Source: Escherichia coli
GTDB taxonomy: Bacteria > Pseudomonadota > Gammaproteobacteria > Enterobacterales > Enterobacteriaceae
DNA length: 64,000 nt
Reading direction: 5' to 3' (one strand)
Assembly: GCF_003334305.1 (NCBI RefSeq)
Contig: NZ_QOWS01000001.1
Below are positions 63,635 to 64,000 of the stretch, in pieces. Both the position numbers and the translations under genes were made by a program. Under the pieces are notes generated by a model, which saw only the letters and a program-made list of their open reading frames with translations, did not search any database and was not told the origin of the DNA. Positions within the stretch are counted from its first letter, which is position 1, and each line of letters starts with the position of its first letter.

Positions 63635-64000
63635 ATGAATTCATTCGAGCGAAGGAATAAGATCATCCAATTAGTGAATGAACAGGGAACCGTGCTTGTT
63701 CAGGATCTGGCGGGAGTATTTGCTGCCTCGGAAGCGACAATCCGTGCCGATTTGCGCTTTCTCGAACAAAAAGGCGTGGTTACGCGCTTTCATGGCGGTG
63801 CGGCGAAAATAATGTCCGGTAATAGTGAAACCGAGACCCAGGAAGTCGGGTTTAAAGAGCGATTTCAGCTCGCCAGCGCGCCGAAAAACAGAATAGCGCA
63901 GGCGGCAGTCAAAATGATCCATGAAGGGATGACCGTTATTCTCGACAGCGGAAGTACCACAATGCTTATCGCCGAAGGATTAATGACCGCCAAAAATATC
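63635..64000 (+). CDS. gatR: DeoR-family galactitol operon repressor, 5' part (continues beyond window end)
   Basis: Open frame MNSFERRNKIIQLVNEQGTVLVQDLAGVFAASEATIRADLRFLEQKG (DeoR HTH), no stop to window edge; not in ORF track because truncated. Confidence 0.75.
   Translation, partial: MNSFERRNKIIQLVNEQGTVLVQDLAGVFAASEATIRADLRFLEQKGVVTRFHGGAAKIMSGNSETETQEVGFKERFQLASAPKNRIAQAAVKMIHEGMTVILDSGSTTMLIAEGLMTAKNI

Follow-up and report, generated by a model that had tools for sequence, protein, structure and literature searches.

The galactitol locus at the end of the window

The final portion of the 64,000-nt stretch of Escherichia coli DNA analyzed here (the window) contains the operon gatYZABCD (58160..63529, + strand), which the transcription factor GatR is expected to repress. 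All six genes are full length according to the list of open reading frames (ORFs) and to the annotation of the related genomes H15 and A7. They are arranged on the + strand in the order gatY (58160-59014), gatZ (59043-60305), gatA (60315-60767), gatB (60798-61082), gatC (61086-62441) and gatD (62489-63529). The gatC gene, which encodes the PTS IIC component, forms a full 451-aa frame in the window, whereas it is annotated as a pseudogene in the MG1655 reference.

Downstream of these six genes and on the same strand, 105 nt beyond gatD, an ATG at position 63635 begins a frame of 122 codons that is still open at the window edge (position 64000; translation MNSFERRNKIIQLV...LMTAKNI). The original prediction had described a frame open for 122 codons to the edge, and translation of the window recovered the same coordinates and a stop-free product. 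A frame beginning at 63636 contains many stop codons and was ruled out, and 63635 is thus the true start. The chance that 122 random codons would be free of stops is approximately (61/64)^122, or about 0.003, although sequence identity with known gatR genes (see below) is stronger evidence than these open-frame odds. Two antisense ORFs in this region (63442-63666 and 63671-63922) were taken to be chance frames, as they are unannotated in every relative.

The open frame corresponds to codons 1-122 of the 257 codons of gatR, or the 5′ 366 of its 774 nt (63635..64000, + strand), and runs off the window edge. Included within it is the whole of the HTH_DeoR domain (aa 6-58; 63650..63808, + strand; Pfam PF08220, E 6.4e-17), followed by the start of the DeoRC domain (aa 83-121, representing model positions 5-43 of 160; 63881..63997, + strand; Pfam PF00455, E 6e-10). 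In the full-length gatR of H15, whose sequence is common to A7, the full DeoRC domain extends over aa 83-236 and is recognized with an E value of 4e-51. The gene order gatYZABCD-gatR-yegS is kept in H15, A7, TUM12355, 41, NCTC9088, HS and K-12. In H15, yegS and yegR are followed, approximately 2 kb downstream of gatR, by the end of a P2-like prophage (9987-13601 of the H15 segment), which carries genes for an integrase, a cox-family regulator and a replication endonuclease.

The intergenic region between gatD and gatR (63530..63634, + strand) contains a hairpin and a weak promoter-like pair of hexamers. The hairpin (63535-63557) is GC-rich, follows the gatD stop codon, and has a folding energy of -21.1 kcal/mol (z -2.3), but it is not accompanied by a T-run. 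A consensus scan of positions 63300-64000 found neither a promoter nor a terminator. By eye, a candidate promoter can be proposed in which TTCACC (63578-63583) is separated by 17 nt from TACACT (63601-63606); this pair is a weak match (8/12) located 29 nt 5′ of the ATG.

A scan of the whole window with Rfam gathering thresholds assigned no RNA family to gatR or its surroundings. Elsewhere in the window, two known RNA elements occupy their expected places, namely a Peptidase-S11 RNA motif directly upstream of pbpG (9475-9555, + strand) and a TPP riboswitch upstream of thiM-thiD (49931-50027, + strand). Rfam also identified two OrzO-P antitoxin RNAs on the - strand (29946-30021, 99.9 bits; 30556-30629, 88.8 bits) within a tandem duplication of approximately 500 bp (29908-31016, 88% identity) between yehK and yehL. 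On the + strand, the same duplication contains two ORFs (30267-30356 and 30875-30964) that each encode a ZorO-like toxin of 29 aa. There is no annotation of this OrzO-P/ZorO-like type I toxin-antitoxin pair in the H15 or A7 records.

Identity of the gene and its counterparts in other strains

The 366 nt of the gene that fall within the window match the 5′ end of a 774-nt gene in H15, A7, TUM12355, 41 and NCTC9088 with 100% identity. Among these five relatives the full 774 nt are also identical, and the gene, which resides between gatD and yegS, is annotated as a DeoR/GlpR family regulator. Its counterpart in MG1655 is b4498, designated 'DNA-binding transcriptional repressor GatR', a pseudogene that is joined from two fragments around IS3E. 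When IS3E is removed from K-12 gatR, a 774-nt frame is obtained that encodes exactly the 257-aa protein of the relatives, and the 122 aa encoded in the window are those of this reconstructed b4498 product. Across the 299 nt of fragment 1, the window and K-12 differ at 3 nt. The gene can therefore be identified as gatR on the basis of synteny and of identity with K-12 b4498.

The generic name assigned to this protein by RefSeq/PGAP is explained by the content of NCBIfam, which holds no GatR-specific model or equivalog and in which the models for paralogues score below threshold. For the full-length protein, the best NCBIfam models are AgaR (NF040755), at 232.6 bits against a curated cut-off of 260 bits, and SrlR (NF007753), at 226.3 bits against a cut-off of 350 bits. 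These and other DeoR-family NCBIfam identities were rejected because all scores lie below the respective cut-offs. AgaR and SrlR, which are E. coli DeoR-family repressors responding to sugars or polyols, have the same two-domain architecture as GatR, but they are paralogues encoded in other genomic contexts. A PDB sequence search returned the DeoR C-terminal domain (7l6l, E 2e-11) as its sole match, with no closer structure.

The last 135 codons of gatR lie outside the window, and the case for their intactness rests on the matching record of E. coli A7 (NZ_CP028767.1), a strain from orangutan faeces. In a local alignment of the window to this record, 64000 of 64002 aligned positions are identical and mismatches are absent. 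H15, which differs from the window by 8 mismatches and 2 gaps, was rejected as the closest relative because A7 provides the better match. The original prediction had proposed an inspection of the sequence downstream, and in the A7 record this sequence (the 408 nt at A7 3036589-3036996) completes an intact gatR of 774 nt, encoding 257 aa and ending in a single terminal stop, with neither an IS element nor a premature stop.

The only differences between the window and A7 are found in the rcnR-rcnA intergenic region, where the window has one C fewer in each of the two C-runs TACTCCCCCCCAGTA and TACTACCCCCCAGTA (49488 and 49509). These runs resemble RcnR operator sites of the form TACT-G6-N-AGTA, of which the window presumably carries the canonical length. 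The two homopolymer differences suggest that the window may represent another assembly version of A7 or a sister isolate. A feature that the window shares with A7 concerns yehM (26457-28735, - strand), a DUF5682 family gene encoding 759 aa in H15, which is present as two ORFs following a one-base deletion near position 27092. Among the 5,331 genomes with this segment, the deletion occurs in A7 only, and PGAP flags the gene there as 'frameshifted'. The split either makes yehM a strain-specific pseudogene or stems from a sequencing error. Together with the alignment, the shared deletion indicates that the window derives from A7 or from an isolate essentially the same as it.

The GatR protein of A7 corresponds to WP_001295426.1 and is identical to the GatR of E. 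coli HS. Over the 366 nt present in the window, the HS gene differs at 4 positions, all of which are synonymous. Similarly, the HS gene and the K-12 gene without IS3E each exhibit 20 nt differences from the H15 allele over 774 nt, and again all are synonymous. The restriction of these differences to synonymous sites, together with the identity of the encoded proteins, indicates purifying selection on a working protein. The wild-type GatR of HS thus has the same 122 aa and the same place after gatD as the window's gene, with no protein difference detectable between them. From these comparisons, the gene at 63635-64000 is very probably the 5′ 47% of a wild-type gatR that is predicted to be functional.

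Predicted regulation of the galactitol genes

Repressors of the DeoR family bind operator DNA through a winged-helix domain, whereas their DeoRC domain mediates oligomerisation and recognizes a phosphorylated effector, either a sugar or a polyol. By analogy, the N-terminal winged-helix domain of GatR (aa 6-58) would be expected to bind operators at one or more gat promoters, and its DeoRC domain (aa 83-236) would oligomerise and sense an inducer derived from galactitol. In the absence of this inducer, GatR would hold gatYZABCD off. When galactitol is present, GatR would leave the DNA, making its catabolism inducible. Where the operator lies, which compound acts as the inducer and whether gatR is autoregulated are points of this scheme that derive from family knowledge, and how gatR is transcribed is likewise something that we infer.

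The repressor GatR of the E. coli galactitol operon is said to have been first described by Nobelmann and Lengeler in 1996. The wild-type gatR allele has been described since that year and its protein has already been used experimentally, and the allele reported here, which has nothing to set it apart from those of thousands of other E. coli sequences, is therefore already known rather than new. When the K-12 pseudogene was replaced by the gatR gene of E. coli HS, expression of gat became regulated again (Sousa et al., 2017; PMC5850726). In addition, silencing of gatR in LF82 and CFT073, both natural isolates, alters fitness in the mouse gut (bioRxiv 10.64898/2026.01.05.697630), which implies that the repressor is active in both strains.

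It had been anticipated that the gat genes would be inducible if the rest of gatR proved intact. This expectation is supported by inference, given that A7 has a complete gatR and that the encoded protein is identical to the functional GatR of HS. The phenotype predicted from the sequence would be galactitol-inducible gat expression, as opposed to the constitutive expression observed in K-12.

One alternative is that gatR is intact, yet the gat genes are not normally inducible because of a defect in the operator, in the promoter or in formation of the inducer. Some precedent comes from the CRISPRi study of natural isolates cited above, which suggests that gat de-repression fails in vivo in some of them (bioRxiv 10.64898/2026.01.05.697630). 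Furthermore, the window and H15 differ in length at a T-run (58036-58043) that belongs to a hairpin-plus-T-run structure following fbaB and preceding gatY, with T8 in the window versus T9 in H15. However, this terminator T-run is the only difference between the window and H15 within positions 56401-64000. The six full-length structural genes encode the same proteins as those of H15, and GatR itself does not differ from the functional HS protein. We therefore consider such a defect very improbable, and favor a gat operon that would respond normally to galactitol.

A 13-nt element, AAAACA(A/G)ATCATT, is present in one copy at the gatY promoter region, where it forms part of AAAACAAATCATTT (58105..58118, + strand), and in one copy upstream of gatR, where AAAACAGATCATTC (63567-63580) is a near-copy of AAAACAAATCATTT with a match of 12/13 nt. 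When the sequences were subjected to mononucleotide shuffling, a match of this quality was reached in 3 of 300 shuffles for k=13 and in 11 of 300 for k=12. This element is a possible shared GatR operator and is offered as a lead only. The more specific proposal that it constitutes a GatR operator half-site, and that gatR is thus autoregulated in E. coli, appears doubtful to us, and the same degree of doubt extends to the related point concerning convergent loss (see below). If the operator reading were true, E. coli gatR would be autoregulated in the manner of its Salmonella counterpart. The GatR protein of Salmonella Typhimurium, which is likewise a DeoR-type gat repressor but whose gene cluster is organised differently, is reportedly able to bind its own promoter, an observation ascribed to Nolle et al. 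in 2017. Deletion of the HTH from Salmonella gatR is known to de-repress the gat promoters (PMC7972205).

Insertions in laboratory lineages and the state of gatR across E. coli

In MG1655, gatR fragment 1 is 299 nt in length, and both the annotation and junction alignment place the 1258-bp IS3E between duplicated GAC trinucleotides. The equivalent 3-bp target in the window (GAC, 63931..63933) is unoccupied, and the sequence runs straight through this site (codons 99/100) and continues for a further 67 nt. Thus, the 5′ region of gatR is indeed uninterrupted, in contrast to the K-12 allele, as the original prediction had stated. The truncated K-12 product comprises about 100 aa followed by 9 IS-encoded residues and a stop, such that the HTH is kept and the sensor domain is lost. 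By splitting gatR after codon 99/100, IS3E parts the HTH from the sensor domain, and this disruption is the reason that gat is constitutive in K-12. Several reports attribute the constitutive expression of gat in K-12 to an IS in gatR (PMC10878103, PMC4072538, PMC9189660), and all of them cite Nobelmann and Lengeler (1996).

A second lesion of the same gene is found in the BL21 lineage, in which IS1 has inserted at the 9-bp target CGATTTCAG. Annotation of BL21(DE3) and junction alignment locate this target at 63860..63868 in the window, with a boundary that is uncertain by 1 nt, and here it is also empty. Since both of the known laboratory insertion sites fall in the part of gatR that is seen, and both are empty, the two lesions are absent from the window. 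The IS1 and IS3E sites are 63 nt apart and represent independent inactivation of gatR in two laboratory lineages, which would be a case of convergent loss under domestication.

To place these alleles in a population context, we surveyed 5,426 complete E. coli genomes. The K-12 gatR::IS3 junction is present in 344 of them, and the matches listed are K-12 derivatives. The BL21 gatR::IS1 junction is considerably rarer (35 of 5,426), with 34 of its carriers being named BL21/B laboratory derivatives and the remaining one, Ec-U5, originating from a human host. REL606 and strain 'B' do not occur in this set of 35 genomes, which suggests that gatR::IS1 is confined to the BL21 branch. The K-12 insertion site is uninterrupted in 4760 of the 5108 genomes holding it, and the whole of gatR, at a coverage of at least 80%, is found as one joined place in 4757 of 5110 genomes. 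The 3′ 408 nt of the gene, which correspond to the portion beyond the window, are present in 5110 genomes and form a single uninterrupted piece in 5109 of these; the sole exception is a deletion rather than an insertion. Moreover, each of 59 full-length matches sampled across the ranking spans exactly 408 nt. Large interruptions of gatR other than those of K-12 and BL21 are therefore nearly absent from the 5,426 genomes. An uninterrupted gatR is the norm in E. coli, with the broken copies of K-12 and BL21 being exceptions of laboratory lineages, and these counts identify the intact gene as the wild-type state.

The remaining alternative, that an IS, a frameshift or a stop breaks gatR past the window edge and leaves gat constitutive as in K-12, is less probable still: although the window stops at codon 122 with 53% of the gene unseen, two laboratory lineages have independently gained gatR insertions, and gatR readily acquires new IS insertions in the mouse gut, where they yielded constitutive mutants of the strain carrying HS gatR (PMC5850726), an intact gene is present in A7, which differs from the window by two homopolymer gaps only, and in the four other near-identical genomes (H15, TUM12355, 41 and NCTC9088), the 3′ portion is almost invariably uninterrupted in the survey, and both sites used in laboratory strains lie empty in the part that is seen.

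A wild-type gatR is thus the preferred reading of this locus, and its value lies in correct annotation. In contrast to K-12 and BL21 with their IS-inactivated gatR, the strain would be expected to show normal regulation of galactitol catabolism. Beyond annotation, the intact gatR is of consequence only when K-12 data on the fitness costs of the gat operon in the gut are applied to natural isolates.
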